From assembly GCA_944389385.1 (NCBI GenBank), contig CALXMC010000001.1, positions 189,303-253,302 of the forward strand: a stretch of 64,000 bases of DNA. The letters are read 5' to 3'. A program made the translations under genes and the position numbers. A model generated the notes under the pieces. It saw only the letters and a program-made list of their open reading frames with translations, searched no databases and was not told where the DNA came from. Shown one piece after another: positions 13,409 to 42,056 of this stretch. Within the stretch, counting starts at the first letter, position 1, and the number at the start of each line of letters is the position of its first letter. This DNA comes from an uncultured Alphaproteobacteria bacterium (GTDB lineage: Bacteria; Pseudomonadota; Alphaproteobacteria; Rs-D84).

Positions 13409-13597
13409 GGTGCGAAAGCATCGTTATCTGGTGTAATGGTGTTTTTGCACCGTTATATCCCCGACATTTGGTCGGGGGGCCGTTGGTATACAACAGGTTT
13501 TACCAAAAACAGCGGAATCATCTAACAGATATGATTTATCAACTCCCCGACCGCCAAAAATATGTGGCGGTTTAACTTTTTTATAAAAGGAAAAAAT
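13409..13597 (+). ncRNA. Conserved multi-hairpin leader element, copy A (candidate cis-regulatory RNA or MITE)
   Basis: Shares an ordered series of hairpins with 41868-42056 (GGTGC-loop-GCAYC-GTTAT x2, CCCGAC-loop-GTCGGG, TGGTA-TACAACAGGTTT-TACCA, ATCAT-loop-ATGAT, CCGCC-loop-GGCGG); ends at the start codon of an OMP gene. Confidence 0.45.
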
Positions 13598-14185
13598 ATG
13601 AAAAAAATAATTCCTGTTGCATTATGTGCTGCATTTTTACCTGTGTATGGCTTTGCTGCGGACGCAACAACCAATACAACAAGTATATTTGATAATACCA
13701 GATTTTTTATTGAATACGGCGCATCGATATTTTCCAGCACTGGAACAAAAGAAAAACTGGATGGTGAAACGTTATCAGATGTTGATACAACATCGGTAAA
13801 TACTGGCACATCACTATCCATTGGTGCTGATTTTGATGGGATTCAATTGGCTTTTACTCCATCGTATTCAGATCAAGAAAGTATGTCGGTTACAGATTTA
13901 AGCTTGCAATTATTCGTTCCATTTATGGACACTAAATTACAACCATTTGTTTCATTATCTGCTGGTATTGGATTTGTCAGCATTGATTCATTAGATGTTG
14001 ATAATGAAATTGGTTTCAGTTATGGCATCGGTGCCGGAGTAAAGTACACATTTAATGACAATATGTATGTCAAGGTTGGTCTGGAATACGCTGGTGCATC
14101 ATTCAGTTTTGATGTATATGGGTATGATGCGGATATTAGTGCATCTGGATTCGGTTTAACGACCGGATTAGGGTACAGATTTTAA
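13598..14185 (+). CDS. Outer-membrane beta-barrel protein (OmpA/OmpW/Opa-like small barrel), signal peptide
   Basis: MKKIIPVALCAAFLPVYGFAADA signal peptide; alternating amphipathic beta strands; C-terminal …GLGYRF with terminal Phe. Confidence 0.7.
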   Translation: MKKIIPVALCAAFLPVYGFAADATTNTTSIFDNTRFFIEYGASIFSSTGTKEKLDGETLSDVDTTSVNTGTSLSIGADFDGIQLAFTPSYSDQESMSVTDLSLQLFVPFMDTKLQPFVSLSAGIGFVSIDSLDVDNEIGFSYGIGAGVKYTFNDNMYVKVGLEYAGASFSFDVYGYDADISASGFGLTTGLGYRF

Positions 14186-14188
14186 TAA

Positions 14189-14222
14189 TAAAAAACACCG
14201 GCATTTGCCGGCAAAAACCGGT
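14189..14222. terminator. Intrinsic terminator hairpin (CACCGGCATTTGCCGG family variant)
   Basis: AAAAAACACCGGCATTTGCCGGCAAAAACCGG after the OMP gene. Confidence 0.55.
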
Positions 14223-14262
14223 AAAAATGACGTATTATGAAAATTACATAAATATTATATGA

Positions 14263-14290
14263 AAAAGCCGGCATTTACCGGCTTTTTTTG
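14263..14290. terminator. Intrinsic terminator hairpin
   Basis: AAAAAGCCGGCATTTACCGGCTTTTTTT between OMP (+) and mnmG (-). Confidence 0.6.
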
Positions 14291-14296
14291 ATGTTT

Positions 14297-15946
14297 TTAA
14301 TTGCCGCATTTTATTTTGCGTAAAACAACCATTATGCCGGCCGGTGTCATACCCGGAATGCGCCCCAGGTCGGCGATATTTTCCGGCCGCGTGGCGGTTA
14401 ATTTTTCCACCAGTTCGTTGGTTAATCCCGGCAAACCCCGGTATTCAAAATTGACTGGTATTTTTAATTCTGCGTCACGCCGGTATGCCGCGATTTCGCG
14501 TTCGTTGCGCTGGATATACCCGGCATAGAATTTATCGTTTTCGCGAATTTTATCGGCGCGATATGCGTATTTTTCATCCCGCGCAGACGCATCCAACATC
14601 CCAAGTTCAACCGCCATATCCCCCAGTCGCGCAATTGCATTATCCGCCCGCAGACGTAACCGATATTCCGCACGTGATGTAAACATCCGATATGGTTCAT
14701 CCACCCCCAGTGTTGTAATATCGTCAATCAACACACCAATCATCGCGTTTGTTCTGTCCAGTTGCATCTGTGCCAACCCCAACGCACGCGCGGCGGCGTT
14801 ACAGCCCGCAACGATGCCTTGGGCGGCGGCCTCTTCATATCCAGATGTGCCGTTAATTTGCCCGGCAAAGAATAATCCCGGAATATCTTTGGATTCCAAT
14901 GTGTCGCGCAGCGCGCGTGCGTCAATTGTGTCATATTCAATCGCGTAACCATACCGCACGACGCGCGCGTTTTCCAATCCTGGAATTGTGCGAATCCACG
15001 CGTCTTGGACATCTGCGCCAAAACTTGTGGAAATACCGTTGGGGTAAATTAAATCACTGCGTATTCCCTCGGGTTCCAGAAAAACATGGTGCGATGTGTG
15101 TTCGGGAAAACGCATAACCTTGTCTTCTATACTGGGGCAATACCGCGGGCCAGTGCCACGAATGTCGCCGTTATACATCGGCGCATTAAGGATATTTTCA
15201 CGAATTAAATCATGCGTTTTTTGTGTCGTGTGCGTTATATAGCAAACGGCATCATAATTATTTGTCGGATTTGGTGCGCTGAACCAATCGTGTGGCGCGT
15301 CGCCCGGTTGCACTTCGCACACAGAATAATCTATGGACGATTTGTCGATACGCGCGGGTGTGCCTGTTTTCAGGCGCATAATTTTGAACCCGGCCGCCAC
15401 CAAAGCCCCCGATATATTTTCATCCGCCGCCTGGTATTCACCATCGTCCATGATGCGACCAGATGAAATTTTTTCGACCCCGCGTGTTACCAAGCCATTC
15501 AAAAAAGTCCCCGTGGTCAATACTATTGCGCGCGCGGCATATTCGCTGTTGATGCACATTTTCGCGACGTCCAGCGATTTAACTATTTCAAATTGCACGG
15601 TTAAATTCGGATAATCACGCAATATTTTAACGATTTCATTATGATATAATTCGCGATCGATTTGTGCGCGCAGTGCCTGGGTTGCCGCGCCATGTGATGC
15701 GTTTAACGTACGAAAATGAATTCCGGCCGCGTCCGCCGCGCGCCCCATAATTCCGCCCAGTGCGTCAATCTCAGCCACCATTTGTGATTTGCCCGGACCC
15801 CCGATAGACGGGTTGCACGACATAGCCCCCAAATCAGATTCGCGTTGGGTTATCAACAATGTACGCGCACCGCGCCGCGCAGATGCACATGCGGCCTCGA
15901 CCCCGGCATGTCCGCCACCAATAACGATTACATCAAATGATTTCAT
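14297..15946 (-). CDS. mnmG: tRNA uridine 5-carboxymethylaminomethyl modification enzyme MnmG (GidA)
   Basis: [24 protein letters not shown]… FAD-binding N-terminus, …[18 protein letters not shown]…, C-terminal [11 protein letters not shown]; 549 aa is shorter than typical. Confidence 0.88.
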
Positions 15947-15949
15947 TTA

Positions 15950-16678
15950 TTAAAAACGTCCCATACCGCCGTTAATATGTAATACCTGGCCATTTATGTA
16001 CGATGCATCGTCTGACGCCAAAAACACGCAAGCGGCCGCAATATCATCTGGTTCGCCAAAACGGCCGGCGGGTATTTGTGCCAAATAAGTCTTTTTCAAA
16101 TCATCGGACAAAACATCGGTCATAGGTGTTTTGATAAATCCCGGTGCGATACAGTTTGCTGTTATGCCACGGGATGCAACCTCGGCCGCGATGGATTTAG
16201 TCATCGCAATCATTCCGCCCTTGGACGCGGCATAATTCGCCTGACCTGGGCCGCCGATTGCACCGATAATGGACGCCATGTTGATAATACGCCCGTTGCG
16301 TTGTTTCATCATGGGCATAATAACCGCGCGACACATCTTGAAACAAGACCGCAGATTTGTGTTAATAACATCATCAAATTGCTCGTCCGTCATACGCATC
16401 AGTAATGTATCTTTGGTAATGCCGGCATTATTTACAACAATATCGATTTTTCCGGCCGCCTCTATTGCGGCATTAACCAAATCAACCGCGCCGTTATCAG
16501 CCGCCAAATCGATTGGAATTTTGACATAAGAATCATCGAATTGCGCATTTAATTTATCCATGCTGCGCCCAGACACAACGACCGTCGCGCCTGCATCTTT
16601 CATACGTTTTGCAATTGCGCCACCAATACCACCGGTTGCGCCAGTAATCAAAGCAACTTTGCCATTTAATTCAAACAT
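15950..16678 (-). CDS. fabG: 3-oxoacyl-[ACP] reductase
   Basis: SDR family: TGATGGIGGAIA…NNAG…YAASKGG…; adjacent to fabD. Confidence 0.88.
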   Translation of the reverse strand: MFELNGKVALITGATGGIGGAIAKRMKDAGATVVVSGRSMDKLNAQFDDSYVKIPIDLAADNGAVDLVNAAIEAAGKIDIVVNNAGITKDTLLMRMTDEQFDDVINTNLRSCFKMCRAVIMPMMKQRNGRIINMASIIGAIGGPGQANYAASKGGMIAMTKSIAAEVASRGITANCIAPGFIKTPMTDVLSDDLKKTYLAQIPAGRFGEPDDIAAACVFLASDDASYINGQVLHINGGMGRF

Positions 16679-16679
16679 T

Positions 16680-17555
16680 TTATATCTCCAATTTTCTTGA
16701 TGTCATATCGGGACAAATACGCGGTGTTAATCCAGTTAAGACGGAACCAGGTCCAACCTCGACGGTTTCGGTTATACCTAACTCGTGCATTTTTAACACA
16801 GATTCGCGCCAACGCACGCCATGTGTAATCTGATATACCAACACTTCTTTTATCTCAGCCGGGTCAGACATCGGCGCAGCGGTTTTATTCGAAATCAAAA
16901 TTGCGTTTGGTGTTTTGATTTCTATTTTTTCCAATGCTGCACGCATTTCATCCGCGGCAGGTGCCTGGATACGACAATGAACGGGTACAGACAAAGCCAA
17001 CGGCATTGCGCGTTTTGCGCCCGCCCCTTTGGCCAATTCCAGTGTTTTTTCAACAATATCTTTTGCGCCTGAAACAACAACCTGGCCGGGGGAATTATCA
17101 TTTGCAACATCGCAATCTGTTTGTGCGCAAATTTCGCGGACTTTTTCAATACCCAATCCCAATATAACTGCGGTCAGACCCGCGCCAACCGGCACTGCGC
17201 GCTGCATAGCATCACCACGCAGACGCAACAATCGCGCCGCATCGCCAACCGATAAAGCCCCCGCCGCACACAGCGCGGTATATTCACCCAACGAATGCCC
17301 CGCAACATATTGTGTTAATTCAACGTTTGATGCACGTAACATCGCAATGGATACGGCCATAATTGCAGGCTGGACATTGGTAGTTAATGTTAATTCATCC
17401 ATTGGCCCGTTAAAAATAATATCAGATAATTTTTGATTTAACGCGTCATCAACCTCGTCAAATACGGCGCGCGCGACTGGATTATTGTCGTATAAATCTT
17501 TGCCCATACCAACGGATTGAGAACCCTGGCCTGGGAAAACCAGCACAGAAGACAT
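16680..17555 (-). CDS. fabD: Malonyl CoA-ACP transacylase
   Basis: FPGQGSQSVGMGKDLY…GHSLGEYTAL active-site motifs. Confidence 0.9.
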   Translation of the reverse strand: MSSVLVFPGQGSQSVGMGKDLYDNNPVARAVFDEVDDALNQKLSDIIFNGPMDELTLTTNVQPAIMAVSIAMLRASNVELTQYVAGHSLGEYTALCAAGALSVGDAARLLRLRGDAMQRAVPVGAGLTAVILGLGIEKVREICAQTDCDVANDNSPGQVVVSGAKDIVEKTLELAKGAGAKRAMPLALSVPVHCRIQAPAADEMRAALEKIEIKTPNAILISNKTAAPMSDPAEIKEVLVYQITHGVRWRESVLKMHELGITETVEVGPGSVLTGLTPRICPDMTSRKLEI

Positions 17556-20418: not shown

Positions 20419-20492
20419 TGGGTGGTATTGGACTCGAACCAACGACCTTTACGATGTCAACGTAACGCTCTAACCAACTGAGCTAACCACCC
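20416..20492 (-). tRNA. tRNA-Val (anticodon GAC)
   Basis: Reverse complement GGGTGGT-TA-GCTCAGTTGGTTAGAGC-G-TTACG TTGACAT CGTAA-AGGTC-GTTGGTTCGAGTCCAAT-ACCACCC-A-CCA. Confidence 0.85.
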
Positions 20493-20526
20493 AAAACCGT
20501 TTCCTGGTGATTTGTCCATGAAACCA

Positions 20527-20577
20527 GCGACCTTTACGATGTCAACGTACGCGGCTTACCAACTGAGCTAACCACCC
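20527..20577 (-). pseudogene. Partial duplicate (5' about 50 nt plus upstream flank) of tRNA-Val(GAC)
   Basis: GGGTGGTTAGCTCAGTTGGTAAGCCGCGTACGTTGACATCGTAAAGGTCGC matches the intact tRNA through the anticodon arm and then diverges (no T-arm or acceptor 3' half). Confidence 0.6.
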
Positions 20578-20760
20578 AAAACTATTACAAAGCGCACAAA
20601 TTATACCAAACAAATTTCAGATTGCAATATTAAATTGTTTTTATTCGGCTTTATTCGATTAAAACACACATTTGACTTTGTCATTCCCAGGCGACGTGTC
20701 GCGTGGGTGATTGGGGCGTGTGTGTGGGGAAATACGTGACTAGTCACTTAGTCCCTTAAC

Positions 20761-21291: not shown

Positions 21292-21363
21292 ATAATACAG
21301 AGTATAAAAAATACTCTTATATAACAATAATTTTAGTTCATAAATATAACGAAAATTTTTAAC

Positions 21364-21393
21364 AAAAACACCGGCGATTGCCGGTGTTTTTTT
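21364..21393. terminator. Bidirectional intrinsic terminator (CACCGGC…GCCGGTG family)
   Basis: AAAAACACCGGCGATTGCCGGTGTTTTTTT between the GIY-YIG gene and accC. Confidence 0.65.
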
Positions 21394-22750
21394 ATTTCTT
21401 TTCTTTTTCAGATTTCAAATAAGATTCCAACCAATGATTATCAAAATTCAGCGTTTTTACATCGCGATTTTTTAATAATTTTTGCTGTAACGGAATCGTT
21501 GTTTTTACGCCTTCGATAACAAATTCGTCCAACGCACGTGTTGCACGCATTATGCACGCCGGCCGCGACGGCGCATGCACAATCAATTTTGCAATCATAG
21601 AATCGTATGTCGGCGGAATAGTGTATCCTGTATAAACGGCACTATCCACGCGCACGCCCATCCCACCCGACGGCGCATACAGCGTTATTTTGCCCGGATT
21701 TGGGATAAAGTTTTCTGGGTCTTCGGCATTTATGCGGAATTCAATCGCATGACCGTGTGGAACGACATTAGATTGCGTATATCCCAATTTTTCACCGGCC
21801 GCGACGCGAATCTGTTCGCGCACCAAATCAACACCATAAACCATTTCAGTAACAGGATGTTCAACCTGCAAACGCGTATTCATTTCCAAGAAATAAAATT
21901 TGCCATCTTCGAACATAAATTCGAACGTACCCGCATTGACATATCCCATTTTTTTTGCGGCGTTTTTACAGATTTCAATCATATCGTCGCGCTGTTTCTG
22001 GGTCAGAATTGCGGCGGGGCATTCCTCCATAACTTTTTGATTTTTGCGTTGCAGCGAACAATCGCGTTCGCCAAAAATCACAACATTGCCATGTGTATCG
22101 CCCAATACCTGGAATTCAATATGACGCGGATGCAACAATAATTTTTCCATATACAGTGTATCATCGCCGAATCCAGATTTAGCCTCGTTCTTTGTCATTT
22201 GAAACGCTTCGGCCATCTGGTCGGCATTCATAACCGGACGAATGCCGCGCCCACCGCCACCTGCGGCGGCCTTTAACATAACGGGATAACCGATTTTTTC
22301 GGCCCACGCATACGCATCTTCCAACGTTTCAACCGCGCCATCAGACCCCGGCACAACGGGCAATCCGCATTCGATAGCGGTGCGTTTTGCATTAACTTTA
22401 TCGCCCATTTTTTCAATCATGGCGGCCGACGGCCCAATCCAGATTAAACCATGTTGTTCAACTTTCTGGGCAAAATCTGCACGTTCGGATAAAAATCCGT
22501 AACCCGGGTGAATTGCGTCCGAATTGGTCAATAACGCCGCGGTTAAAATCGCAGATTCATTCAGATAAGAATCCTTGCTGGGGCCCGGACCGATACACAC
22601 AGATTCGTCCGCCAATTGTACATGCATGGCGTTTTTATCGATGGTTGAATATACTGCAACCGTGCGAATACCCATATCGCGGCACGCGCGAATAATACGC
22701 AGCGCGATTTCCCCGCGATTGGCAATCAAGACTTTTTTTATTTGAGACAT
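21392..22750 (-). CDS. accC: Acetyl-CoA carboxylase biotin carboxylase subunit
   Basis: MSQIKKVLIANRGEIALRIIRACRDMGI… ATP-grasp, 452 aa. Confidence 0.93.
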   Translation of the reverse strand: MSQIKKVLIANRGEIALRIIRACRDMGIRTVAVYSTIDKNAMHVQLADESVCIGPGPSKDSYLNESAILTAALLTNSDAIHPGYGFLSERADFAQKVEQHGLIWIGPSAAMIEKMGDKVNAKRTAIECGLPVVPGSDGAVETLEDAYAWAEKIGYPVMLKAAAGGGGRGIRPVMNADQMAEAFQMTKNEAKSGFGDDTLYMEKLLLHPRHIEFQVLGDTHGNVVIFGERDCSLQRKNQKVMEECPAAILTQKQRDDMIEICKNAAKKMGYVNAGTFEFMFEDGKFYFLEMNTRLQVEHPVTEMVYGVDLVREQIRVAAGEKLGYTQSNVVPHGHAIEFRINAEDPENFIPNPGKITLYAPSGGMGVRVDSAVYTGYTIPPTYDSMIAKLIVHAPSRPACIMRATRALDEFVIEGVKTTIPLQQKLLKNRDVKTLNFDNHWLESYLKSEKEKK

Positions 22751-23912: not shown

Positions 23913-25055
<1,143 letters not shown>

Positions 25056-25058
<3 letters not shown>

Positions 25059-25088
25059 AAAAAACACCGGCAAATGCCGGTGTTTTTT
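25056..25088. terminator. Bidirectional intrinsic terminator (AACACCGGCAAATGCCGGTGTT)
   Basis: A8-CACCGGCAAATGCCGGTG-T6 between convergent mreB and the ABC permease. Confidence 0.7.
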
Positions 25089-26304
25089 ATTCATAACGTA
25101 AACTGTCAATCGGGTTTAATTTTGCGGCCTTCATTGCCGGCATAACGCCGGACGCCAACCCGACAACCACTGCGACCGTAACGGATACTATTACCGGCCA
25201 CATACTGAACGGCACTTCGTAATCCATTATGAAACGCCCGACACCCTGGGACAGACCAACACCCAATACCAATCCAATCATAGACCCCATAAACGATATC
25301 AAAATCGCTTCGGACAAGAACTGGATGATGATATGTTTTTCGCGTGCGCCAATGGCTTTGCGTATGCCAATTTCGCGCGTGCGTTCCGCAACCGACACCA
25401 ACATCATATTCATAATGCCAATTGATCCCACCAACAGCGACACCGCCGCAATCGCGATTAACAGCATTGTCATATAACCGGTTACGGTATCCATGGCCTC
25501 CATAACTTGTTTCATATCCATAATTTGGAAATCATCGGCTTCGTCATCGGCCAATTTATGCCGGTCGCGCAGCAGTGCGGTTATCTGTTCAATTGCCAAC
25601 GCGTTATCTGCATTATCAGTCAGTTTCAATGTGACCATATTAACCGAGTTTGGAAAACGGCTGCCCTGCAAACGTTTTTTCAGTGTGGTAATTGGGATAA
25701 TAATCATATCGTCCTGGCTGCCCATTGTGGAATCGCCGCGTTCTTTTGTGACGCCGATAATGGTAAAGGGCATATTTTGCACGCGGATAATTTCGCCAAC
25801 TGGGTTTTCAGGCATTTGTAATTCTTCGGCCGTCTGGGGTCCGATAATGGCGTATGTTGAACCATTGCGCACGGCAGACTGATTAAAAAACGTGCCGTAT
25901 TTCATTTCCAGATTTTGCACTTGTTCATAACCTGGGTATGCACCAACCATGGACGTTGCCCAGTTTTGATTACCATAAATAACCTGGGCGGCGGCATTTT
26001 GTACGGGACTGAATGCGGCGACATCGGGCAATTGACCGATGAATTCAGCATCTTGGATAGTTAAAGTTTGTCGATTTCCCGTACGCACCCCCGCGCTTTG
26101 CGCCGCGCCTGCGCGAATCATAATTGTCCCAGTCCCCAAGGACGAAAACTGGTCGCTGATTTGTTTTGACACCGTTTCACCAACTGCAACCATTATCACC
26201 ACGGCCATAACGCCGATAATAATACCCAACACGGTTAAAAAAGAACGAACCTTATTCCCGCTGATGGACAGCCAAGATTCTTTGAAAATATCATTAAAAG
26301 TCAT
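25087..26304 (-). CDS. ABC transporter permease, MacB/FtsX family
   Basis: 405 aa; N-terminal TM, large periplasmic domain, C-terminal FtsX-like 3-TM bundle; downstream of cognate ATPase. Confidence 0.82.
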   Translation of the reverse strand: MTFNDIFKESWLSISGNKVRSFLTVLGIIIGVMAVVIMVAVGETVSKQISDQFSSLGTGTIMIRAGAAQSAGVRTGNRQTLTIQDAEFIGQLPDVAAFSPVQNAAAQVIYGNQNWATSMVGAYPGYEQVQNLEMKYGTFFNQSAVRNGSTYAIIGPQTAEELQMPENPVGEIIRVQNMPFTIIGVTKERGDSTMGSQDDMIIIPITTLKKRLQGSRFPNSVNMVTLKLTDNADNALAIEQITALLRDRHKLADDEADDFQIMDMKQVMEAMDTVTGYMTMLLIAIAAVSLLVGSIGIMNMMLVSVAERTREIGIRKAIGAREKHIIIQFLSEAILISFMGSMIGLVLGVGLSQGVGRFIMDYEVPFSMWPVIVSVTVAVVVGLASGVMPAMKAAKLNPIDSLRYE

Positions 26305-27125: not shown

Positions 27126-27146
27126 AGTTGTTACATGGTAAATAAT

Positions 27147-27175
27147 AAAAAAAACACCGGCAAATGCCGGTGTTA
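27147..27175. terminator. Intrinsic terminator hairpin (AACACCGGCAAATGCCGGTGTT) inside the efflux gene cluster
   Basis: On the minus strand the hairpin is followed by T8; located between the adaptor gene and the ATPase gene. Confidence 0.6.
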
Positions 27176-29794: not shown

Positions 29795-29868
29795 GGCCTG
29801 GTGGCAGAGTGGTTATGCAGAGGACTGCAAATCCTTGTATGCCGGTTCGATTCCGACCCAGGCCTCCA
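29795..29868 (+). tRNA. tRNA-Cys (anticodon GCA)
   Basis: GGCCTGG-TG-GCAGAGTGGTTATGC-AGAGGA CTGCAAA TCCTTGT-ATGCCGGTTCGATTCCGAC-CCAGGCC-T-CCA. Confidence 0.85.
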
Positions 29869-30104
29869 AAAAATAAAACGCCCCTGTGGCGTTTTGTTTT
29901 TTGGAAATATGGGATGTCATCGAACCGGCCCGGTTCGCATATGAGTCAGATTTTTCAAGCGCCCTGCGCGCCGAAAAAGCCATACGAATGGTGAGTCAAG
30001 TTGCGCCAGCAACGGTTTTTGCCGCACATGCCGGCAAAAATGCGAACTTTCCGACCCAGGCCTCCAAAAAATAAAACGCCCTTGTGGCGTTTTGTTTTTT
30101 GGAA
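29851..30104 (+). repeat. 56-bp tandem direct repeat (tRNA-Cys 3' end plus its terminator) flanking a 141-bp spacer
   Basis: TTCCGACCCAGGCCTCCAAAAAATAAAACGCCCYTGTGGCGTTTTGTTTTTTGGAA at 29851-29906 and again at 30048-30104. Confidence 0.75.
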
Positions 30105-31236: not shown

Positions 31237-31703
31237 GTAAAATAGACTATCAAAATTTATTGGATAATGCGTTAAAATCTGTTGTGAAAGAGGCTCTTGT
31301 TTATGCACAAATAAACGGCCTGGGCGATGGCGCGCATTTTTATATCACATTCAAAACACGTGCGCCTGGCGTTGTTTTACCGGATTTTTTGCGCATACGT
31401 TATCCTGACACAATGACCATTGTGTTACAGTATTCGTATAACAATCTGAATGTATCGGACAAAGAATTCGGTGTTCAATTAACATTTGATGGCCGGCCGT
31501 TTTTTATTCGTGTGCCGTTTTCTGCGCTGGTCGAATTCAAAGATCCATCTGCGGATTTCATGTTATCGTTTCATCCACGTGGTGCTGCCGCTGCAACGGC
31601 CGATAATGATATGGAATTACCATTGGACGAAAAACCGGGTGTTGTTCCAGACCGCGGTCGCGTTGTTTCGTTGGATGAATTTCGCAAAAACAAAAAGCAA
31701 TAA
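31233..31703 (+). CDS. sspB: ClpXP adaptor SspB-like protein (stringent starvation protein B family)
   Basis: N-terminal fold pattern …LLDNALKSVVKEAL…HFYITFKTRAPGVVLPDFLRIRYPDTMTIVLQYSYNNL…FDGRPFFIRVPFSALVEF… followed by an acidic or disordered tail. Confidence 0.6.
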   Translation: MSKIDYQNLLDNALKSVVKEALVYAQINGLGDGAHFYITFKTRAPGVVLPDFLRIRYPDTMTIVLQYSYNNLNVSDKEFGVQLTFDGRPFFIRVPFSALVEFKDPSADFMLSFHPRGAAAATADNDMELPLDEKPGVVPDRGRVVSLDEFRKNKKQ

Positions 31704-31730
31704 AAACACCGGCAAATGCCGGTATTTTTT
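31703..31730. terminator. Bidirectional intrinsic terminator (CACCGGCAAATGCCGGTA variant)
   Basis: AAAAACACCGGCAAATGCCGGTATTTTTT between convergent sspB and gpsA. Confidence 0.65.
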
Positions 31731-31733
31731 ATA

Positions 31734-32600
31734 TTATTTTAATCCCATTTTTTTCTGCATTTCGATCAACAACGGCGTATCAACCCCAAGATTTTTTGCG
31801 CGCCGAATCAGTCCGTCCAGTGCGAATATACCCTCGACTGTGCCGGTGGGTGGGTTTCCGTTTGCGATTGCGGCGCCACCTGCAAAATTGCGACTGGTTG
31901 ATGATGTGGCGGATAAAACCAAATCGCCTATGCCACACAAATCCAAGAACGTGCGCATTTTTGCGCCACTGCGGATGCCCAGATCCATAACCTCGCCCCA
32001 GGTGCGTGTAAATATCATTGCGCGTTCATTTTCGCCGGCCGCAGTCACGGACGCATATCCACAAATCAACGCAACTGCATTTTTACCGACCCCACAAATT
32101 TGAGTTCCAATAACATCATCGGTTGGGCTGATGTATAATTTATTCAATATCGCCCTGCCCGCCTCTATTGCGCGCGGCGTGCCCGCCAGTGTCGAGCCAG
32201 TTGGAACCCCTCGTGCAACCTCGGCTGCGAATTGTGGACCGGACAACACACCAACATCGGTTGCCGTCGGCAATTCAGATGCGATAATTTCCGACATAAA
32301 ATCACCGGTTGCGCTTTCTGCGCCCTTGGTGCAGATAATAACAGGTTGGTTATTATAATATTGTGCTGCATTTCGCATTGTTGTCCGGAAAAAGGCGGCG
32401 GGTGTTACAATCAACCATGCCTCGCACGTTGACATTTGTGCCATGTCGCGTGTTATACGTAAATTTTGTGGCATATCAACACCATCAAAATTTTTATACT
32501 CGCCATCAAAAGACCAAAGAACAACATCCGCCCCGCCCTGTGCAGAAATAATTGCCAACGCTGTTCCCCATGCGCCTGCGCCAATTACACCGACTTTCAT
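31734..32600 (-). CDS. gpsA: Glycerol-3-phosphate dehydrogenase [NAD(P)+]
   Basis: MKVGVIGAGAWGTALA Rossmann N-terminus, …GKNAVALICG… 288 aa. Confidence 0.88.
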   Translation of the reverse strand: MKVGVIGAGAWGTALAIISAQGGADVVLWSFDGEYKNFDGVDMPQNLRITRDMAQMSTCEAWLIVTPAAFFRTTMRNAAQYYNNQPVIICTKGAESATGDFMSEIIASELPTATDVGVLSGPQFAAEVARGVPTGSTLAGTPRAIEAGRAILNKLYISPTDDVIGTQICGVGKNAVALICGYASVTAAGENERAMIFTRTWGEVMDLGIRSGAKMRTFLDLCGIGDLVLSATSSTSRNFAGGAAIANGNPPTGTVEGIFALDGLIRRAKNLGVDTPLLIEMQKKMGLK

Positions 32601-34213
32601 TTCAAATTCCTTATTTTCTTTTCTACTTTTTTAATAATTACCAATCCATCATCAGACAGTTCAATCGCACGCTGATATGCATCCAGAGCCAATTTTTCAT
32701 CGCCCAATGCAACGTATAAATCACCCAATTGTTCAAACAAAGATGAACAAGAATTTGATATTTCACCCACGCGCGCAATAACATCCAAAGCCGGTTGAGC
32801 ACCCTCGCGCACAGTGACAACACGCCCCAACGTATCCCATGCCATAATATCCGTTGGGTCTTGTCTGACCAGTGTCATGGCGTAATCGTATGCGTCTTCG
32901 ATATTTCGCCCCTGGGCGGCCCATATTTTCGCCTGTAACGCCAATATTTCACCATCCAACGGCAACGTTTCTGATGCGTCATGCAGGTCTGTTTGTGCGC
33001 TTTCAAAATCTTCGAACATGTAATAAATATGTGCACGACTTTTTACAAAAAAAGCATGCCCCAATTCATTCAGATTTTCGTCGTCCAATGCCGCATTAAC
33101 CACACGCAGTGCACCGCGCTTATCATTATTTTGAATGTTATATGCAATCAGTTTATTGACCGCCGGCACAAACAAAGGATTTTGTTCTGTGGCACGTTCC
33201 AATGTTTTTATATCGCCACTGCGTTCTGCGTCGCGCAACACAGCGAACAAATAAAACGGACTGTCAACCGGGATTTTATCGAAAAATGACCGGTAATTGC
33301 CGGTGTTATTATAAAAAAATTGCCCCAGGTAATAATTCACTGCGTCACTGGTTTGGCCGAATAATGGCGATGTAATTTGTGCGAATCGCAATAATAAAAT
33401 CGCCAAATCAGAATACATCATGATTTGTGTATGCGACACAGTTTGCACCAAACTGAATGCCAATTGGTTTTTGTATCCCGAAAACATCGACCAATCAGGA
33501 ATATTGTTGTAATCCAACATATACATACCGCCCGGACGTGCAGTAAAATCATTATGCAAACGTTCTGCATCATCCATTAAATCATGATGCTGATAAAACG
33601 ACATTAAATACATATAATCGTTTATATTCAAAAAATCCGTACTGACATTTGCGAATTCTTCTGCGGCACGATCGATTTTGCCGGTTTCCGCATAAATTTG
33701 TCCTGAAACGAAATGTTGCCATGATTCATTGGTCGGCAATTCCCGGATAAATTCCAATGTTTTTGTTATATGATTTGTTGCGATTCCAGACCAAATACGC
33801 AACGGTGCCGCCAATGCAGACGTATCTTTTTTATGGCGGGAATACATTTCGTCCCACTTGTCATTTTGCACCAAATACGCGTCATATATCAGCCGTGACG
33901 CAGTGTTTTTTTCTTCTTCCAGTACAATGATTTCGTCCGGCATGTGGCCGCTTAAAAATTCGGATAAAAATTTAGTTGATTGAACGGTCGCATATTCAAC
34001 ATCTGTTAATTTGCCGGCAAATTTGGCCGCCGAATCAAAATCATTGACATAGATAGCATGTTGAGCCGCCAAAAAAGCCCCAAATTGAGTTGTTGGATAT
34101 GTGTGTGTTTGTTGCGCCCGGTTAAAATGGTTGTGGCACAAATACGCACCACCAATCACAGCCATGATTGCAACCACCCCTGCGCCGATAAATAATGTTT
34201 GTGCTTTTTTCAT
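32597..34213 (-). CDS. Hypothetical TPR-repeat protein with N-terminal membrane anchor
   Basis: About 538 aa; N-terminal TM after MKKAQTLFIGAGVVAIMAV; C-terminal TPR-like helical repeats (…ALDAYQRAIELSDD…); 4-nt overlap with gpsA. Confidence 0.6.
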   Translation of the reverse strand: MKKAQTLFIGAGVVAIMAVIGGAYLCHNHFNRAQQTHTYPTTQFGAFLAAQHAIYVNDFDSAAKFAGKLTDVEYATVQSTKFLSEFLSGHMPDEIIVLEEEKNTASRLIYDAYLVQNDKWDEMYSRHKKDTSALAAPLRIWSGIATNHITKTLEFIRELPTNESWQHFVSGQIYAETGKIDRAAEEFANVSTDFLNINDYMYLMSFYQHHDLMDDAERLHNDFTARPGGMYMLDYNNIPDWSMFSGYKNQLAFSLVQTVSHTQIMMYSDLAILLLRFAQITSPLFGQTSDAVNYYLGQFFYNNTGNYRSFFDKIPVDSPFYLFAVLRDAERSGDIKTLERATEQNPLFVPAVNKLIAYNIQNNDKRGALRVVNAALDDENLNELGHAFFVKSRAHIYYMFEDFESAQTDLHDASETLPLDGEILALQAKIWAAQGRNIEDAYDYAMTLVRQDPTDIMAWDTLGRVVTVREGAQPALDVIARVGEISNSCSSLFEQLGDLYVALGDEKLALDAYQRAIELSDDGLVIIKKVEKKIRNLK

Positions 34214-36703: not shown

Positions 36704-36713
36704 AAAATATGTA

Positions 36714-36746: not shown

Positions 36747-36770
36747 GTGAATCAGCGACGCAAAAATAAC

Positions 36771-36800
36771 AAAAAACACCGGCAATTACCGGTGTTTTTT
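36771..36800. terminator. Bidirectional terminator (CACCGGCAATTACCGGTG family member)
   Basis: AAAAAACACCGGCAATTACCGGTGTTTTTT between parB and pal. Confidence 0.65.
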
Positions 36801-36818
36801 GCATATTTTGAACAACAA

Positions 36819-37313: not shown

Positions 37314-38087
37314 ATGAACGATTTTGACTTGCGTGATTTATTATTGGCGGGCGTGCGTTGGGAATTGACCGATATGCCAACTGCAATGGCGGCGGCCGCA
37401 CGTGCGGCGACGGTGTCGAATGACGATGTGCCGGCATCTGGTGTGCAATCGCGCACCCAGACCGCAATTGTACCACCGATTGCACCACAACACGCTGTGT
37501 CCATTGAAACGGCTGTGGCGATGGCGGCGCGACCTGGGAACACAGATGCGTTGTTACGAATGGTGGCTGAATTTAATCATCCGCTGCGGGGCGGGGTGAC
37601 GAATGTAGTTTTGCCACATATTGCCCCAAATCCAAATGGTTTGGTTGTTGTAACAGACGTTCCATCCGGCGATGATGATGCGTCTGGACGAATTTTATCT
37701 GGGGCAGCCGGCGAATTATTTGATAAAATGTTGGCGGCGATTGGTCTGTCGCGTGAAAATGTATCTATTGTGCCGATGGTATTTTGGCGTACGCCGGGCG
37801 GTCGCACCCCGACGGCGGACGAATTAAAACTTGCGCGGCCATTTATGGACAAATTTATGGATTTTTTGCGTCCGAAATTTATTTTGACCCTGGGTACATT
37901 GGCGGCGACGGAAATAATTGGTGCCGCGTTGCCACGTGCGCATGGAATGACGACGATATTGCCAAATGGTGCAACGGCCATGCCGATTTATCATCCGAAT
38001 TATTTGATGTTAAAACCGGCCGCCAAAAGGGACGCATGGAACGCATTGCAAACCATGCAAAATTTGTTGAATTCGCCGGATAAATAG
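37314..38087 (+). CDS. Uracil-DNA glycosylase superfamily protein (family 4-like) with about 110-aa N-terminal extension
   Basis: C-terminal 150 aa fits the UDG family-4 fold (…VVVTDVPSGDDDASGRILSGAAGELFDKMLAAIGL…HPNYLM…). Confidence 0.65.
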   Translation: MNDFDLRDLLLAGVRWELTDMPTAMAAAARAATVSNDDVPASGVQSRTQTAIVPPIAPQHAVSIETAVAMAARPGNTDALLRMVAEFNHPLRGGVTNVVLPHIAPNPNGLVVVTDVPSGDDDASGRILSGAAGELFDKMLAAIGLSRENVSIVPMVFWRTPGGRTPTADELKLARPFMDKFMDFLRPKFILTLGTLAATEIIGAALPRAHGMTTILPNGATAMPIYHPNYLMLKPAAKRDAWNALQTMQNLLNSPDK

Positions 38088-38125
38088 ATAATAATTGCGT
38101 CATAATATATCAAAAGGAGCGTACA

Positions 38126-38674
38126 ATTAAACCGCAAATTAACCGTGATAATCGTCGGGATACGGGCCCGCGTGTAAACAATCGGATTTTTGCTAAATCC
38201 GTCCAGGTAATCGATGAAAATGGCCAAAATTTGGGCGTTATGCAGACGTCTGATGCGTTGAACATGGCGATGGATGCAGGGCTGGATTTGGTTGAGATCA
38301 GTTCAAATGGCACAACGCCGATTGTTAAAATAATGGATTTTGGCAAGTATAAGTACGAGCAGAAAAAACGTGCGTCCGAGGCCAGAAAGAATCAAAAAAC
38401 GGTCGGTATGAAGGAGGTTTGGGTAAAGCCTTTTATCGAAGAAAACGACCTGAATATAAAAATGAAAAAAGTTTTTGAATTTCTGGGGGATGGCAACAAA
38501 GTCAAAGTTGCTGTGATGACCCATGGTTCGAAAAAGGTTTTGGCACGGGGCAGGGATGCCGTACCGGAATTATTCGCGCGAATAATGGAAATTGTGGGCG
38601 ATCGTGGGACTTTGGAATCAAAATCAAAGCCCGATGAACGCACGAAATCCATTATAATTGCGCCTGCGAAATAA
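38126..38674 (+). CDS. infC: Translation initiation factor IF-3 with non-canonical AUU start codon
   Basis: In-frame translation from ATT at 38126 gives IKPQINRDNRRDTGPRVNNRIFAKSVQVIDENGQNLGVM…, the canonical IF3 N-domain, preceded by AAAAGGAG SD; the C-domain ORF (38231-) lacks this N-domain otherwise. Confidence 0.85.
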   Translation: MKPQINRDNRRDTGPRVNNRIFAKSVQVIDENGQNLGVMQTSDALNMAMDAGLDLVEISSNGTTPIVKIMDFGKYKYEQKKRASEARKNQKTVGMKEVWVKPFIEENDLNIKMKKVFEFLGDGNKVKVAVMTHGSKKVLARGRDAVPELFARIMEIVGDRGTLESKSKPDERTKSIIIAPAK

Positions 38675-38678
38675 AAAC

Positions 38679-38705
38679 GCCCGATTGGGCGTTTTTTTTA
38701 TGACC
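38679..38705 (+). terminator. Intrinsic terminator after infC
   Basis: AAAAACGCCCGATTGGGCGTTTTTTTT. Confidence 0.7.
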
Positions 38706-38716
38706 AACGAAAAAAT

Positions 38717-38744
38717 TTGCATCCAGTCGATTTTGAATTATAAT
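38717..38744 (+). promoter_or_regulatory. Sigma70-like promoter for pnp
   Basis: TTGCAT-16 nt-TATAAT. Confidence 0.45.
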
Positions 38745-38771
38745 GCCCAGGACGGCGAAGGATAAATTATT

Positions 38772-38807
38772 CATTCTTGCATTTTTTATGGAATGCAAAA
38801 ACGAATG
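38772..38807 (+). promoter_or_regulatory. Long hairpin in pnp 5' UTR (candidate RNase III/PNPase autoregulatory site)
   Basis: CATTC-TTGCATT-TTTTATGG-AATGCAA-AAAC-GAATG nested stem about 45 nt upstream of the pnp start. Confidence 0.4.
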
Positions 38808-38852
38808 ATTTTTCTTCGCGTTTAACAGTAACAAAAAAACATGGAGAAAAAT

Positions 38853-41021
38853 ATGTTATTTGGTTTATTTAACAAAGGTGAAAAAACTCACTTGAATAAC
38901 CCAGTTGCGGTTGAAATCCCGTATGGTGATGAAACACTGCGTCTGGAAACGGGTCGTATGGCCAAGCAGGCCAACGGCGCGGTTTTGGCAACAATGGGCG
39001 GAACAATGGTTTTGGCAACGGTCTGTGCAGAAAAGACCGCGGTCGAGGGTCAAGACTTTTTCCCATTAACCGTTGATTACCAGGAAAAATTTGCGTCTGC
39101 GGGCCGTATCCCAGGTTCGCGTGACCGGCGCGAGGGCAAGGCATCGACCGCAGAAACATTGACTGCGCGTTTGATTGACCGCCCAATTCGTCCGCTGTTT
39201 CCGGAAACATTCAAAAACAAAGTTCAAATTGTTGTCCAAGTGTTTTCGTATGACCGCAAAAACCAACCTGATATTTTGGCGATGATTGCTGCATCTGCGG
39301 CGTTGTCTTTGTCTGGTGTGCCGTTCGCAGGCCCGATTGGCGCGGCGCGTGTTGGTTATGCGGATGGGAAATATATCCTGAATCCGTCCAAACGTATGGT
39401 GGAAGATTCTGAAATGGATTTGGTTGTTGCTGCGACCAAAGACGGTGTGTTGATGGTCGAATCAGAAATTGGCGAATTGGATGAAAAAACGGTTCTGGGC
39501 GCGGTTAAATTCGGTTTTGATGCGCAACAGGATGTTATCCGTGCAATCAACGAATTGACGGATGCGGCCGGCAAAGAACGCTGGGCTGTGCCTGAAAAGT
39601 CGGCTGAATATGTCGCGATGGAAAAAGATTTCGAATCTTTCGCGGCTGAAATCGAATCAGCACTGCAAATCAAGGAAAAATTAACGCGTTTGGATACATT
39701 GGCCCAGATTCATGTCGCGGCCAAGGCGCGCATTCCTGAATTGTTCCCGGATACAACCGTGGCCACATCTACGTTGGAATCTGCGGCGGATGAAATTATC
39801 GAAAATATTACTGCGCGTATTATGCGTGGCAATATCTTGGCCGGCAAACCACGTATTGACGGCCGTGATACAAAGACAGTTCGTCCGATTGAAATCGAAT
39901 TGGGCGTATTGCCACGCGCACATGGATCTGCGTTATTCACACGTGGCGAAACCCAGGCGTTGGTGTCTTTGACATTGGGCGGCGGCAAAGATGCTTTGCC
40001 GATTGAAAGCCTGGATGGCGAAGAAGAACGCGATTTTATATTGAATTATAATTTCCCTGGATATTCGGTTGGCGAATGCAAAGGGTTAAAATCCCCGGGA
40101 CGTCGCGAAATTGGACACGGTAACCTGGCATGGCGTGCGTTGCATCCAATGGTGCCCAGCCGTGAAAAATTCGACTATGTTATCCGTGTAGTGTCCGATA
40201 TTTTGGAATCGAATGGGTCTTCGTCGATGGCGACAACATGCGGCGCAACGTTGGCGATGATGGATGGCGGTGTGCCATTGACTCGTCCGGTTGCGGGTAT
40301 CGCCATGGGCTTGATAAAAGAAGGCGATGATTACGCCATCTTGACCGATATTTTGGGTGATGAAGATCACTTGGGCGACATGGATTTCAAAGTAACCGGT
40401 ACCGACCAGGGTATTACCGCATTACAGATGGATATTAAAATCACATCCATTACATTTGAAATCATGGAACATGCACTGGCCCAGGCGCGCGATGGCCGTA
40501 TGCACATTTTGGGCAAAATTGAAAAGGCTATCAAGGCACCACGTGATCATGTGTCTGAATACGCGCCCCAGTTATATACCATGAAAATCAATCCTGAAAA
40601 AGTCCGCGATGTTATCGGCAAAGGTGGTTCTGTTATCCAGGCTTTGACGCGCGAAACAGATACCCAGATTGACTTGGAAGATGACGGAACGGTTAAAATC
40701 ATGGCCACAACGCGCGAAAACGCGGATGCAGCAATCGCACGTATCAAAGATATCGTGGCTGAACCCGAAGTCGGCATGATTTATCCGGGCGTTGTGTCTG
40801 GGGTCAAAGATTTCGGATTGTTTGTAAAGATTTTGAACGGCTTTGAATCCATGGTTCATATTTCTGAAATCACAGGTGACAGAATCGCAAAAATCGAAGA
40901 CACAAAAATCAAAGAAGGCGACAAAGTATTTGTCCGCTATCTGGGTGCCGACAAGCGTGGTAAAACACGTATGTCTATGGTTGGTATCGACCAGAAAACA
41001 GGTGCCGAAATCAAAAAATAA
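38853..41021 (+). CDS. pnp: Polyribonucleotide nucleotidyltransferase (PNPase)
   Basis: Two RNase PH domains, KH and S1 C-terminal domains (…GIYPGVVSGVKDFGLFVKI…); start at MLFGLF (38853, GGAG SD) or 12 nt upstream. Confidence 0.93.
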   Translation: MLFGLFNKGEKTHLNNPVAVEIPYGDETLRLETGRMAKQANGAVLATMGGTMVLATVCAEKTAVEGQDFFPLTVDYQEKFASAGRIPGSRDRREGKASTAETLTARLIDRPIRPLFPETFKNKVQIVVQVFSYDRKNQPDILAMIAASAALSLSGVPFAGPIGAARVGYADGKYILNPSKRMVEDSEMDLVVAATKDGVLMVESEIGELDEKTVLGAVKFGFDAQQDVIRAINELTDAAGKERWAVPEKSAEYVAMEKDFESFAAEIESALQIKEKLTRLDTLAQIHVAAKARIPELFPDTTVATSTLESAADEIIENITARIMRGNILAGKPRIDGRDTKTVRPIEIELGVLPRAHGSALFTRGETQALVSLTLGGGKDALPIESLDGEEERDFILNYNFPGYSVGECKGLKSPGRREIGHGNLAWRALHPMVPSREKFDYVIRVVSDILESNGSSSMATTCGATLAMMDGGVPLTRPVAGIAMGLIKEGDDYAILTDILGDEDHLGDMDFKVTGTDQGITALQMDIKITSITFEIMEHALAQARDGRMHILGKIEKAIKAPRDHVSEYAPQLYTMKINPEKVRDVIGKGGSVIQALTRETDTQIDLEDDGTVKIMATTRENADAAIARIKDIVAEPEVGMIYPGVVSGVKDFGLFVKILNGFESMVHISEITGDRIAKIEDTKIKEGDKVFVRYLGADKRGKTRMSMVGIDQKTGAEIKK

Positions 41022-41078
41022 TCGCATTATGGTGCGCCCATCGGGGCGCATCATGATATTTTTACGGGGGAAATACAA

Positions 41079-41375
41079 ATGGATATGGAATCTTTGATGG
41101 CCCAGGCCAGCGCACTGCAAGACAAAGTAACCGCAGCCCAGGAAAAATTGGCAACAATGCATGTCAAGGGCATTGCGGGCAATGGCGCGGTTGTTATCGA
41201 TATGTCGGGCAAATACGATATGAATTCGATACAAATCAGCGATGAATTGGCGTCGCGCGGTGGTGCGGCTGTGGCGGAAATGGTGGGTTTGGCGTATAAT
41301 GACGCCAAATCCAAAGCGGACGAGTTAATCGACCGTGTAATGGGTGAAGCCACCGCTGGTGTTCCGATGCCGTAA
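41079..41375 (+). CDS. ybaB: Nucleoid-associated protein YbaB/EbfC
   Basis: 98 aa: MDMESLMAQASALQDKVTAAQEKLATMHVKGIAGNGAVVIDMSG… matches the YbaB family layout. Confidence 0.8.
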   Translation: MDMESLMAQASALQDKVTAAQEKLATMHVKGIAGNGAVVIDMSGKYDMNSIQISDELASRGGAAVAEMVGLAYNDAKSKADELIDRVMGEATAGVPMP

Positions 41376-41426
41376 TAAAAAACTGGACAAGTGGTAAAAA
41401 ATCATTTAAGATTCAGCCACTGTTTC

Positions 41427-41503
41427 GGATGTTTAGCTCAGTTGATTAGAGCATCTCGTTTACACCGAGAGGGTCGGGGGTTTGAGTCCCTCAACATCCA
41501 CCA
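41427..41503 (+). tRNA. tRNA-Val (anticodon UAC)
   Basis: GGATGTT-TA-GCTCAGTTGATTAGAGC-A-TCTCG TTTACAC CGAGA-GGGTC-GGGGGTTTGAGTCCCTC-AACATCC-A-CCA. Confidence 0.85.
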
Positions 41504-41510
41504 CAAAATA

Positions 41511-41538
41511 CAATCGCCCAACGGGCGATTTTATTTTG
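41511..41538 (+). terminator. Intrinsic terminator after tRNA-Val(UAC)
   Basis: AATCGCCCAACGGGCGATTTTATTTTG (same stem as the terminator after rpsO at 63958). Confidence 0.6.
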
Positions 41539-41539
41539 T

Positions 41540-41776
41540 GCATGGGGATGTGGGACGAAAACCCCCGTCGGGGTGTTTGACAATGAGTCAGCGAGCGTTT
41601 TAATAAAACGCGAGTGCAGTACGCGCAAGCGTACGCGAACGAATGCCCCACAGCCGGCGTATCGGCGCCGTGCGAGGGAGTCCCGGGCATCCACCACAAA
41701 ATTTCGTTAGCGAACGCAGTGAGCTTAAGAAATTTTAGTGCCACACGAAGCCTTGTGCGAAGTGTGGCTTTTTTAT
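41540..41776 (+). ncRNA. Candidate small RNA or att-scar region: about 200 nt between two terminators, containing a second copy of the tRNA-Val 3' end
   Basis: CATCCACCACAAAAT (tRNA 3' end plus flank, 41495-41509) repeated at 41689-41703; region ends with hairpin GCCACACGAAGCCTTGTGCGAAGTGTGGC plus T6 (41740-41774); only short overlapping spurious ORFs. Confidence 0.3.
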
Positions 41777-41867
41777 TTCATATTCCTTGCCTTATTTTTA
41801 TTTATTGTTTATGATTGGTTTGAATTCACAGGGATGTGGGTTCGGGTCTTTCAAAACCCTTAACACG

Positions 41868-42056
41868 CGGTGCGATTTGCATCGTAATCCGTTTCGCAGA
41901 TGGTGCATTTCGCATCGTTATGCCCGACGTTTTGGTCGGGCGTCTGGTGTTATACAACAGGTTTTACCAAAAGCATCGGGATCATTCGTGTTATGATTTT
42001 GAAAACGCCCGACCGCCATTTCTGTGGCGGTTAATTTTTATAATGGGGTTAATATC
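41868..42056 (+). ncRNA. Conserved multi-hairpin leader element, copy B
   Basis: Same ordered hairpin series as 13409-13597 with identical TGGTR-TTATACAACAGGTTT-TACCA module; ends at the start codon of the glycosyltransferase gene. Confidence 0.45.

Follow-up and report, generated by a model that had tools for sequence, protein, structure and literature searches.

The window analyzed here is a stretch of 64,000 nucleotides (nt) from the genome of an uncultured alphaproteobacterium (assembly GCA_944389385.1, contig CALXMC010000001.1), and the element in question is a structured non-coding region that occurs in it twice. An earlier note on this DNA had drawn attention to positions 13409–13597 (copy A) and 41868–42056 (copy B). 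The two stretches are indeed homologous, with a mean column identity of 78% over the aligned stretch, and each stops, as the note had it, at the Shine-Dalgarno (SD) sequence and start codon of a gene: that of an outer-membrane protein (OMP) of the OMP_b-brl type after copy A, and that of a family-2 glycosyltransferase (GT2) after copy B. A repeat search and a covariance-model search with the filters off agreed that these are the sole two copies in the window. The covariance model gave them 132 and 128 bits, compared to 15 bits for the next best site, and returned no additional diverged copies. Both copies fold far more stably than shuffled sequence (z = −5.4 and −4.6). The protein encoded after copy A has matches on gut-metagenome contigs.

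The boundaries drawn at first proved too short. In an alignment of homologues, homology and structure reach upstream to ~13325 and ~41787, and this extension contains a conserved promoter and two extra hairpins, Hm1 and H0, before the first GGTGC unit. Each repeat, promoter included, spans ~240 nt and is a copy of a structured leader RNA that ends in a terminator (Table 1). From 5′ to 3′, the order is Hm1, H0, H1 and H2, P0, a three-way junction (P1/P2/P3), a terminator hairpin with its U tract, SD, and ATG, such that about eight helices lie between promoter and intrinsic terminator in each copy. Both promoters are of the sigma-70 type. The promoter of copy B was identified by a promoter scan as well as by its conserved −10 column, whereas a simple scan missed that of copy A, which we infer from the −10 column: every homologue has a TAnnnT box in this one column of the alignment, always equally far upstream of the first hairpin. 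Transcription would start at about 13359–13361 in copy A and about 41822 in copy B.

Table 1. Positions of the elements of both leader copies and of other features of the window. MFE, minimum-free-energy structure; seg1 and seg2, first and second strands of P0.
Feature	Position	Strand	Description
Copy A promoter	13325..13352	+	−35 TTGTAT 13325-13330, 16-nt spacer, −10 CATAAT 13347-13352 preceded by TG
Copy A Hm1, 5′-terminal hairpin	13360..13382	+	GAACCCAC..GUGG.GUUC; present in full-length MFE
Copy A segment X	13381..13408	+	H0 (GGACU 13383-13387 / AGUCC 13394-13398) and linker
Copy A H1 and H2	H1 13408-13423; H2 13436-13453	+	H1 CGGUGC-GAAA-GCAUCG; H2 AUGGUG..CACCGU; each then GUUAU
Copy A P0	13459..13477	+	seg1 CCCCGAC 13459-13465 : seg2 GUCGGGG 13471-13477
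Copy A three-way junction	13470..13552	+	Xcc1-like; P1 13470-13479/13543-13552; P2 13480-13487/13508-13515; loop AUACAACA 13488-13495 / AAA 13505-13507; P3 13516-13521/13531-13536; J3/1 13537-13542
Copy A segment Y	13522..13551	+	P3 loop and 3′ arm, J3/1, CCCGA of seg3; complementary to X
Copy A terminator	13549..13583	+	GACCGCCA-loop-UGGCGGUU, then U tract; terminator scan
Copy A SD and gene	13587..14185	+	SD AAGGA 13587-13591; ATG 13598; 195-amino-acid outer-membrane beta-barrel (OMP_b-brl) protein
Copy B promoter	41787..41815	+	TTGCCT, 17-nt spacer, TATGAT
Copy B Hm1, 5′-terminal hairpin	41822..41843	+	GAAUUCACA-GGGA-UGUGGGUUC; in MFE
Copy B segment X	41842..41868	+	H0 (GGGU 41844-41847 / ACCC 41856-41859) and linker
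Copy B H1 and H2	H1 41868-41884; H2 41900-41918	+	covariation; direct repeat
Copy B P0	41922..41941	+	GCCCGAC 41922-41928 : GUCGGGC 41935-41941
Copy B three-way junction	41934..42014	+	Xcc1-like; P1 41934-41942/42006-42014; P2 41944-41951/41972-41979; loop AUACAACA 41952-41959 / AAA 41969-41971; P3 41980-41985/41993-41998; J3/1 41999-42005
Copy B segment Y	41987..42012	+	complementary to X of copy B
Copy B terminator	42011..42039	+	GACCGCCA-UUUCUG-UGGCGGUU, then AAUUUUU; terminator scan
Copy B SD and gene	42045..42962	+	SD GGGG 42045-42048; ATG 42057; 301-amino-acid family-2 glycosyltransferase (GT2)
OmpA-family lipoprotein gene	43048-43695		after the GT2 gene of copy B
AAAAACACCGGCAAATGCCGGTGTTTTT terminator sites	8866-8919, 14184-14215, 14259-14307, 21357-21410, 25053-25106, 27143-27174, 31695-31748, 33276-33307, 36765-36818, 52894-52947		nearly identical bidirectional terminator

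Homologues were collected in two scans. An 18-mer common to both copies returned 30 loci from a genome collection. About 15 of these are real homologues, all from Candidatus Enterousia or unnamed alphaproteobacterial gut metagenome-assembled genomes (MAGs), and the remaining loci are chance matches, as many as would be expected. The other scan covered metagenomes with the anchor CCCGACCGCCA N4-10 TGGCGGTT, which leaves the P2 loop free, and added ~30 more distinct members. Covariance model R1 finds 46 members in all (E ≤ 1e-3). The Enterousia-type loop was also searched for in phages, where it gave seven viral matches, all of them chance.

Across the 46 model-aligned sequences, 95.1% of cells in the junction and terminator core were paired, compared to 32–54% in slid controls, and compensatory changes on both sides were found in 22 of the 30 core pairs. 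The proportion of paired cells was 97% for P1, 96% for P2, 99% for P2b, and 87% for P3, with changes on both sides at 5/9, 8/8, 3/3, and 4/6 pairs, respectively. The columns of P0 are unpaired in the covariance model; in the same set they were 93.8% paired (33–67% in slid controls), and across alignments 94–95% of P0 cells were paired against 24–67%, with three of the seven pairs covarying. Pairing was similarly frequent in H2 (93%; 4/7 pairs covary) and in the terminator (93–98%, with CG/UA swaps), and four of the five Hm1 pairs had changed on both sides in alignment A2 of the homologues. Strand-specific covariation and many G-U pairs bear out the view that these are structured RNAs rather than drifting DNA repeats, and the frequency of the G-U pairs indicates that the RNA functions in its + strand form.

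Most of the hairpins first described are backed by these comparative data, namely the two GGTGC..GCAYC units (H1 and H2), the CCCGAC/GTCGGG hairpin (P0), the ATCAT/ATGAT hairpin (P3), and the CCGCC/GGCGG hairpin (the terminator). The exception is TGGTR-loop-TACCA: L012 and other homologues break it, and the helix that covaries at this site is P2 (CYGNNGNU/ANCNNCRG), which encloses a conserved internal loop and a small apical hairpin, whose stem in the window copies reads GGU-UUU-ACC. For H1 and H2, the data fit two hairpins as well as one long hairpin, with RNAalifold favoring pairing between the units. A likeness to tRNA was considered and rejected: ARAGORN gave no match here, and the NCCA that follows P1 simply makes up the 5′ arm of the hairpin after it.

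The leader has a fixed orientation relative to genes. Among the 38 members scored for a downstream open reading frame (ORF), 32 have a same-strand ORF that starts 8–33 nt after the U tract, which leaves no room for a separate promoter. The genes themselves are diverse, and most encode proteins that are exported or lie at the surface. In the Enterousia set they encode GT2 proteins, the OMP, Cys-rich secreted proteins, and small XRE helix-turn-helix (HTH) proteins. In the wider set, most are signal-peptide or lipoprotein genes and genes for OMP-like proteins, together with those for a superinfection-immunity protein, an MmeI-like methyltransferase, and a recombinase-like protein. The suggestion of a structured cis-regulatory 5′ untranslated region common to envelope genes gains support from the covariation, the fixed orientation, the 8–33-nt spacing, the leader's own promoter, and the terminator before the SD.

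Several of the homologous loci have features of their own. In a related species (L033, 2830–3607), the GT2 leader lies head to head with a diverged leader copy at 3227–3334; the latter precedes an XRE-family HTH gene of 83–88 codons that is absent from the window, and at L029 the leader likewise stands before a small HTH gene. At L014 (4500–4583), a terminator after tRNA-Val, AACCGCCATATCTATGGCGGTTTAATTTTT, is almost identical to the leader terminator and matches the model weakly (18.8 bits). One contig labeled ‘Bacteroides fragilis isolate’ (L019; CAVGNU010000002.1) carries a leader of the Enterousia type together with a GT2 gene, nearly identical to their counterparts in alphaproteobacterial MAGs; this is probably a binning or labeling error.

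The leader contains two sets of mutually exclusive helices. Three segments, seg1 (CCCGAC), seg2 (GUCGGG), and seg3 (CCCGACC), can pair as 1:2, which gives P0, or as 2:3, which gives P1; in the diverged L033 copy all three are jointly altered, to CUCCAAC, GUUGGAG, and CUCCAACC. An alternative pairing of the UCGGG of H0 with seg1 was rejected, as the L033 variant does not back it. Segment X, which comprises the 5′ arm and loop of H0 and the linker that follows, can fold locally as H0 or pair over a long range with segment Y. In this way P0 sequesters the 5′ strand of P1, and X:Y sequesters the 3′ strand of the junction. Both are clearly exclusive with P1, whereas P1 and the terminator overlap by 2–4 nt, the first nucleotides of the terminator stem being common to the 3′ strand of P1 (seg3).

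The X:Y complementarity, found by a repeat search for inverted repeats, is imperfect, spans ~22–26 bp, and covaries from locus to locus. Cognate duplexes had a mean energy of −30.3 kcal/mol, compared to −18.7 kcal/mol for non-cognate ones, and for all 40 of the distinct members compared the cognate partner was among the top 10%. The same specificity separates the window copies, whose own and other duplexes differed at −24.7 versus −12.9 kcal/mol for copy A and −23.5 versus −14.4 kcal/mol for copy B. The full-length MFE of both copies consists of Hm1, X:Y, P0, P2, and the terminator (−93.6 and −91.4 kcal/mol); the alternative fold, with H0 and the three-way junction, reaches −79.7 and −82.2 kcal/mol. 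When the core alone was folded, P0 with the terminator was more favorable than the P1 state for 15 of the 16 sequences.

We consider the best reading of the leader to be a default-off transcription attenuator that switches on when some factor stabilizes the junction, and give this a probability of roughly 0.6. A hallmark of attenuators, an intrinsic terminator between leader and ORF, is present: a terminator scan finds one at both copies, and 42 of the 46 members have a U tract (at least five U among the 8 nt that follow the stem). The proposed cassette would run from the promoter through a ~225-nt structured leader and the intrinsic terminator to the SD and start codon of an accessory surface gene. 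In its ground state, OFF, a ~25-bp X:Y helix would join the 5′ domain to the P3 loop, J3/1, and seg3, while P0 would tie up seg2; the terminator would be complete and RNA polymerase would halt 15–25 nt before the start codon. In the ON state, X would fold as the local H0 and seg2:seg3 pairing would form P1, closing the Xcc1-like junction of P1, P2, and P3. P1 would then remove 2–4 nt of the terminator stem and favor read-through into the gene. Both read-outs behind this model, termination itself and its relief by P1, are predictions from the folds.

Both strands of P1 have a competitor and the ON fold is the less stable one, so that the cassette is expected to be off by default. For the same reason, a stabilizing factor would be required. 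It might be a small molecule, protein, or RNA that binds the junction, and its candidate site is the P2 internal loop AUAnnAYA/RAA, the most conserved element of the junction. Neither copy had an Rfam match to a known riboswitch aptamer.

Several observations weigh against the attenuator. The ON fold lies 8–14 kcal/mol uphill, and the gap is still 8–9 kcal/mol before the 3′ arm of the terminator is made. P1 and the 6-bp terminator core overlap by only 2 nt (4 nt with the outer A-U and G-U pairs), so that a slightly frayed P1 could coexist with the terminator. One member (L011) has neither a recognizable terminator nor an adjacent ORF. Four others (L202, L230, L205, and L237) lack the P2 arm, the proposed sensor, partly or wholly, and still hold P0, P1, P3, X:Y, and the terminator. 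Finally, the fixed sequence anchors and model-fitted alignments make the anchored segments look more conserved than they are and raise the pair counts somewhat; scan 1 fixed the P2 loop, and scan 2 fixed seg3 and the terminator. An attenuator that works through a leader peptide was considered separately and rejected, as no start codon or frame is conserved and the indels are not multiples of three.

The earlier note had recognized no riboswitch or leader family in the element. This stands at the Rfam gathering thresholds, where only four tRNAs were returned from the window, but both copies match RF02221 (sRNA-Xcc1) below threshold, with 38.8 bits for copy A (E = 2e-5) and 42.3 bits for copy B (E = 4e-6) against a gathering score of 53. 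The alignments span the whole model, positions 1–87, and reproduce its three-way-junction topology. Homologues of the window copies scored 34.9–39.8 bits or fell below the E = 0.1 cut-off, compared to 69–73 bits for canonical examples. As these scores are under the gathering score, the family of the window copies is not a member of RF02221 by the Rfam criterion; we regard it as a distant Xcc1 variant with a different expression platform.

sRNA-Xcc1 was reportedly first described as an integron-encoded trans-acting small RNA (sRNA) of Xanthomonas campestris. It has been detected as a discrete 88-nt RNA whose ends fall at the P1 boundaries (PMC2996969), and it adjoins C4/IsrK in a Xylella prophage (PMC12189769). 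The accounts consulted treat it as a trans-acting sRNA and mention its position upstream of a symE or ORF6N gene in passing. Temperate phages carry canonical Xcc1 very commonly, and we found its exact core motif in at least 120 viral contigs (IMG/VR; L048–L167). In canonical examples from such contigs and from L037–L040, a distance of 34–64 nt separates Xcc1 from a downstream gene of antirepressor type (AntA, KilA-N, Bro-N, Rha, and P22_AR_N). Its P3/J3-1 strand is specifically complementary to the 30 nt before the downstream ATG, a ribosome-binding region with which it covaries: duplexes with the RNA's own target averaged −17.2 kcal/mol, compared to −9.8 kcal/mol with others (p = 6e-9), and the cognate partner ranked in the top 10% in 35 of 43 cases. 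These findings suggest that canonical Xcc1 switches translation in cis or in the manner of C4, and is not a generic trans-acting sRNA. The corresponding analysis of SD-region pairing by P2 or P3/J3-1 gave no signal in the window's family, where the cognate duplex fell at the median (~0.5) among non-cognate ones. In Neisseria gonorrhoeae (L037; 1571–1620, 1710–1780 region), a canonical Xcc1 is followed by a perfect TTGACA-17-TATAAT promoter, after which comes a second, weaker Xcc1-like match (33.9 bits).

Could the unit instead be a stand-alone gene for a ~225-nt trans-acting sRNA, with downstream expression arising from leaky read-through? It has its own promoter and terminator, its ground-state fold is a closed and stable rod, and the related Xcc1 occurs as a discrete RNA of 88 nt (PMC2996969). 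A gene of this kind would not be expected, however, to keep a fixed orientation and a spacing of 8–33 nt before many unrelated genes that lack room for promoters of their own, and it would have no need of elaborate competing helices. A search of the window for trans targets of the conserved P2 loop produced chance-level 9–11-mers only. We consider a stand-alone sRNA unlikely.

The long X:Y duplex fits a further model, in which the leader is a C4-like self-targeting antisense RNA or is processed by RNase III, and X:Y controls mRNA processing or stability, not termination. The two strands would belong to a single molecule, or a processed junction RNA would pair with transcripts still being made from its own locus. 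The locus-specific, imperfect duplex of ~22–26 bp in 40 of 40 members has the size of an RNase III substrate, and in canonical Xcc1 the corresponding loops pair with the ribosome-binding region of their own transcript, which resembles the c4/ant arrangement of phage P1, reportedly going back to Citron and Schuster (1990). In the window's family, however, the complementary site is upstream, no pairing with the SD region was found, and the model leaves the conserved U-tract terminator unexplained. It is, in our view, quite improbable.

Two further explanations fare considerably worse. The layout of promoter, structured RNA, terminator, and envelope or polysaccharide genes resembles that of HK022 put and of the Bacillus eps-associated RNA (EAR), and raises the idea of a processive-antitermination RNA that modifies RNA polymerase in cis so that it passes the terminator. 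This is very improbable: the leader has no sequence or Rfam similarity to these families, the units are mostly single genes with one terminator, and two competing folds would go unexplained. A repeat resembling a miniature inverted-repeat transposable element (MITE) that carries a promoter, as the earlier note had also proposed, or a DNA-level protein-binding array, would account for the occurrence of the cassette before unrelated, often accessory genes and for H1 and H2 as direct repeats of a palindromic unit. We found neither terminal inverted repeats nor target-site duplications; just two copies exist in 64 kb, none inside a gene or reversed relative to its gene; and strand-specific compensatory changes and G-U pairs point to RNA, which together make a DNA-level element more doubtful still. 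A small protein gene can be set aside almost entirely: although ORFs of 83 (13324–13575) and 74 codons (41836–42060) pass through the conserved loop of both copies in the same frame (peptide ..LVYNRFYQK..), indels of 1 and 2 nt within the ORF separate the homologues, changes in the stems are compensatory, start codon and SD are not conserved, and the L033 frame continues into the GT2 gene.

The elements had also been placed just downstream of tRNA genes, which does not hold. The tRNA-Thr gene near copy A (13126–13201) is on the minus strand and divergent from it, and the 365 nt from the end of tRNA-Val-UAC to copy B downstream of it contain terminator-like hairpins. In homologous loci the nearest tRNA gene is 100–1200 nt away on either strand; association with tRNAs is not a property of the family. 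The non-coding stretch that follows tRNA-Val-UAC (41504–41790) is conserved in L033 (3551–3781) and holds a sequence like a tRNA 3′ end, GAGTCCCGGGCATCCACCA (~41678–41697), and a strong terminator (~41741–41775). Rfam and ARAGORN both returned no match in it; it could be another att-type remnant or an unannotated RNA. Elsewhere in the window, partial tRNA duplicates lie beside intact genes: part of tRNA-Val-GAC is duplicated (20437–20497 versus 20522–20582; 89% identity), as is the 3′ end of tRNA-Cys with its terminator (29851–29906 versus 30049–30104; 98% identity, 198 nt apart). These duplicates look like att-site remnants of integrated elements. The window also contains at least 10 occurrences of one nearly identical bidirectional terminator, AAAAACACCGGCAAATGCCGGTGTTTTT (Table 1), a uniformity far above that usual for independent terminators.

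The leaders form a well-supported new variant beside the known Xcc1 RNA. They define a leader-RNA family with strong covariation and at least 46 members in a barely studied, uncultured lineage of gut Alphaproteobacteria, and they precede genes that shape the cell surface (an OMP, a glycosyltransferase, lipoproteins, Cys-rich secreted proteins, and a superinfection-immunity protein), which is relevant to interactions between phage and host. The competing helices are explicit enough for mutational testing. The results further suggest that sRNA-Xcc1, which annotation pipelines label as a trans-acting sRNA, is a cis-acting leader module. It is possible, if doubtful, that the AUAnnAYA/RAA junction is the sensor of an orphan riboswitch-like class found in phage antirepressor leaders, where the output would be translational through sequestration of the ribosome-binding site, and in surface-gene leaders of gut Alphaproteobacteria, where it would be a terminator under double anti-antitermination. 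If so, one cellular signal would switch on prophage antirepressors together with surface genes of the host or of morons; a ligand or binding protein, if one exists, would link the control of prophage induction with surface remodeling.

Among known systems, HK022 put and the Bacillus EAR share with the window's leader a promoter-proximal structured RNA and a terminator that follows it before envelope or polysaccharide genes; the leader resembles them in neither sequence nor structure, and differs in its single-gene units and its bistable architecture. The c4-ant system of phages P1 and P7 (Rfam C4, RF01695) likewise begins with a 5′ structured RNA whose loops are complementary to sites within their own transcript and covary by locus. 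In contrast, the window's family has no Rfam match to C4, and its target is upstream rather than over the ribosome-binding site. Attenuators and transcriptional riboswitches, such as the trp, purine, and T-box leaders, resemble it in having pairings 1:2, 2:3, and 3:4, in which 3:4 is a terminator before the ORF, and a structured conserved domain enclosed by the 2:3 helix. Unlike these, the window's leader has no leader peptide and no match to a riboswitch model, its antiterminator is opposed by two helices (P0 and X:Y), and the overlap with the terminator is just 2–4 nt.

The comparison with Xcc1 is the closest. In both RNAs, P1 encloses P2 and P3, a hairpin lies directly 3′ of P1, and a same-strand ORF follows just downstream. 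The internal loop of P2 is also alike, reading AAUACAAUA/GAAUA in Xcc1, UAUACAACA/AAA in the window, and AUAnnAYA/RAA in the wider family. Xcc1 conserves AUACAA(U)A opposite GAA at this site; in the family of the window copies, the form AUA[CAU][AC]A[CU]A / [GA]AA occurs in 28 of the 34 members retrieved with the loop-free anchor. In both, the P3 loop and J3/1 provide the strand that pairs with a competitor. The apical part of P2 differs, with CCC-GNRA-GGG in Xcc1 and GGU-UUU-ACC in the window copies; some members of the wider family have GGG-GUAA-CCC or GG-UUCG-CC at this position. The window's family adds a 5′ domain of ~110 nt (Hm1, H0, H1, H2, and P0), and its 3′ hairpin is a U-tract terminator. 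Its competitor (X) is upstream, whereas that of Xcc1 is at the ribosome-binding site, and it precedes chromosomal surface genes of gut Alphaproteobacteria, whereas Xcc1 precedes phage antirepressor genes. Canonical Xcc1 and the window's family would share the same logic, a junction set against a competitor, with different outputs.

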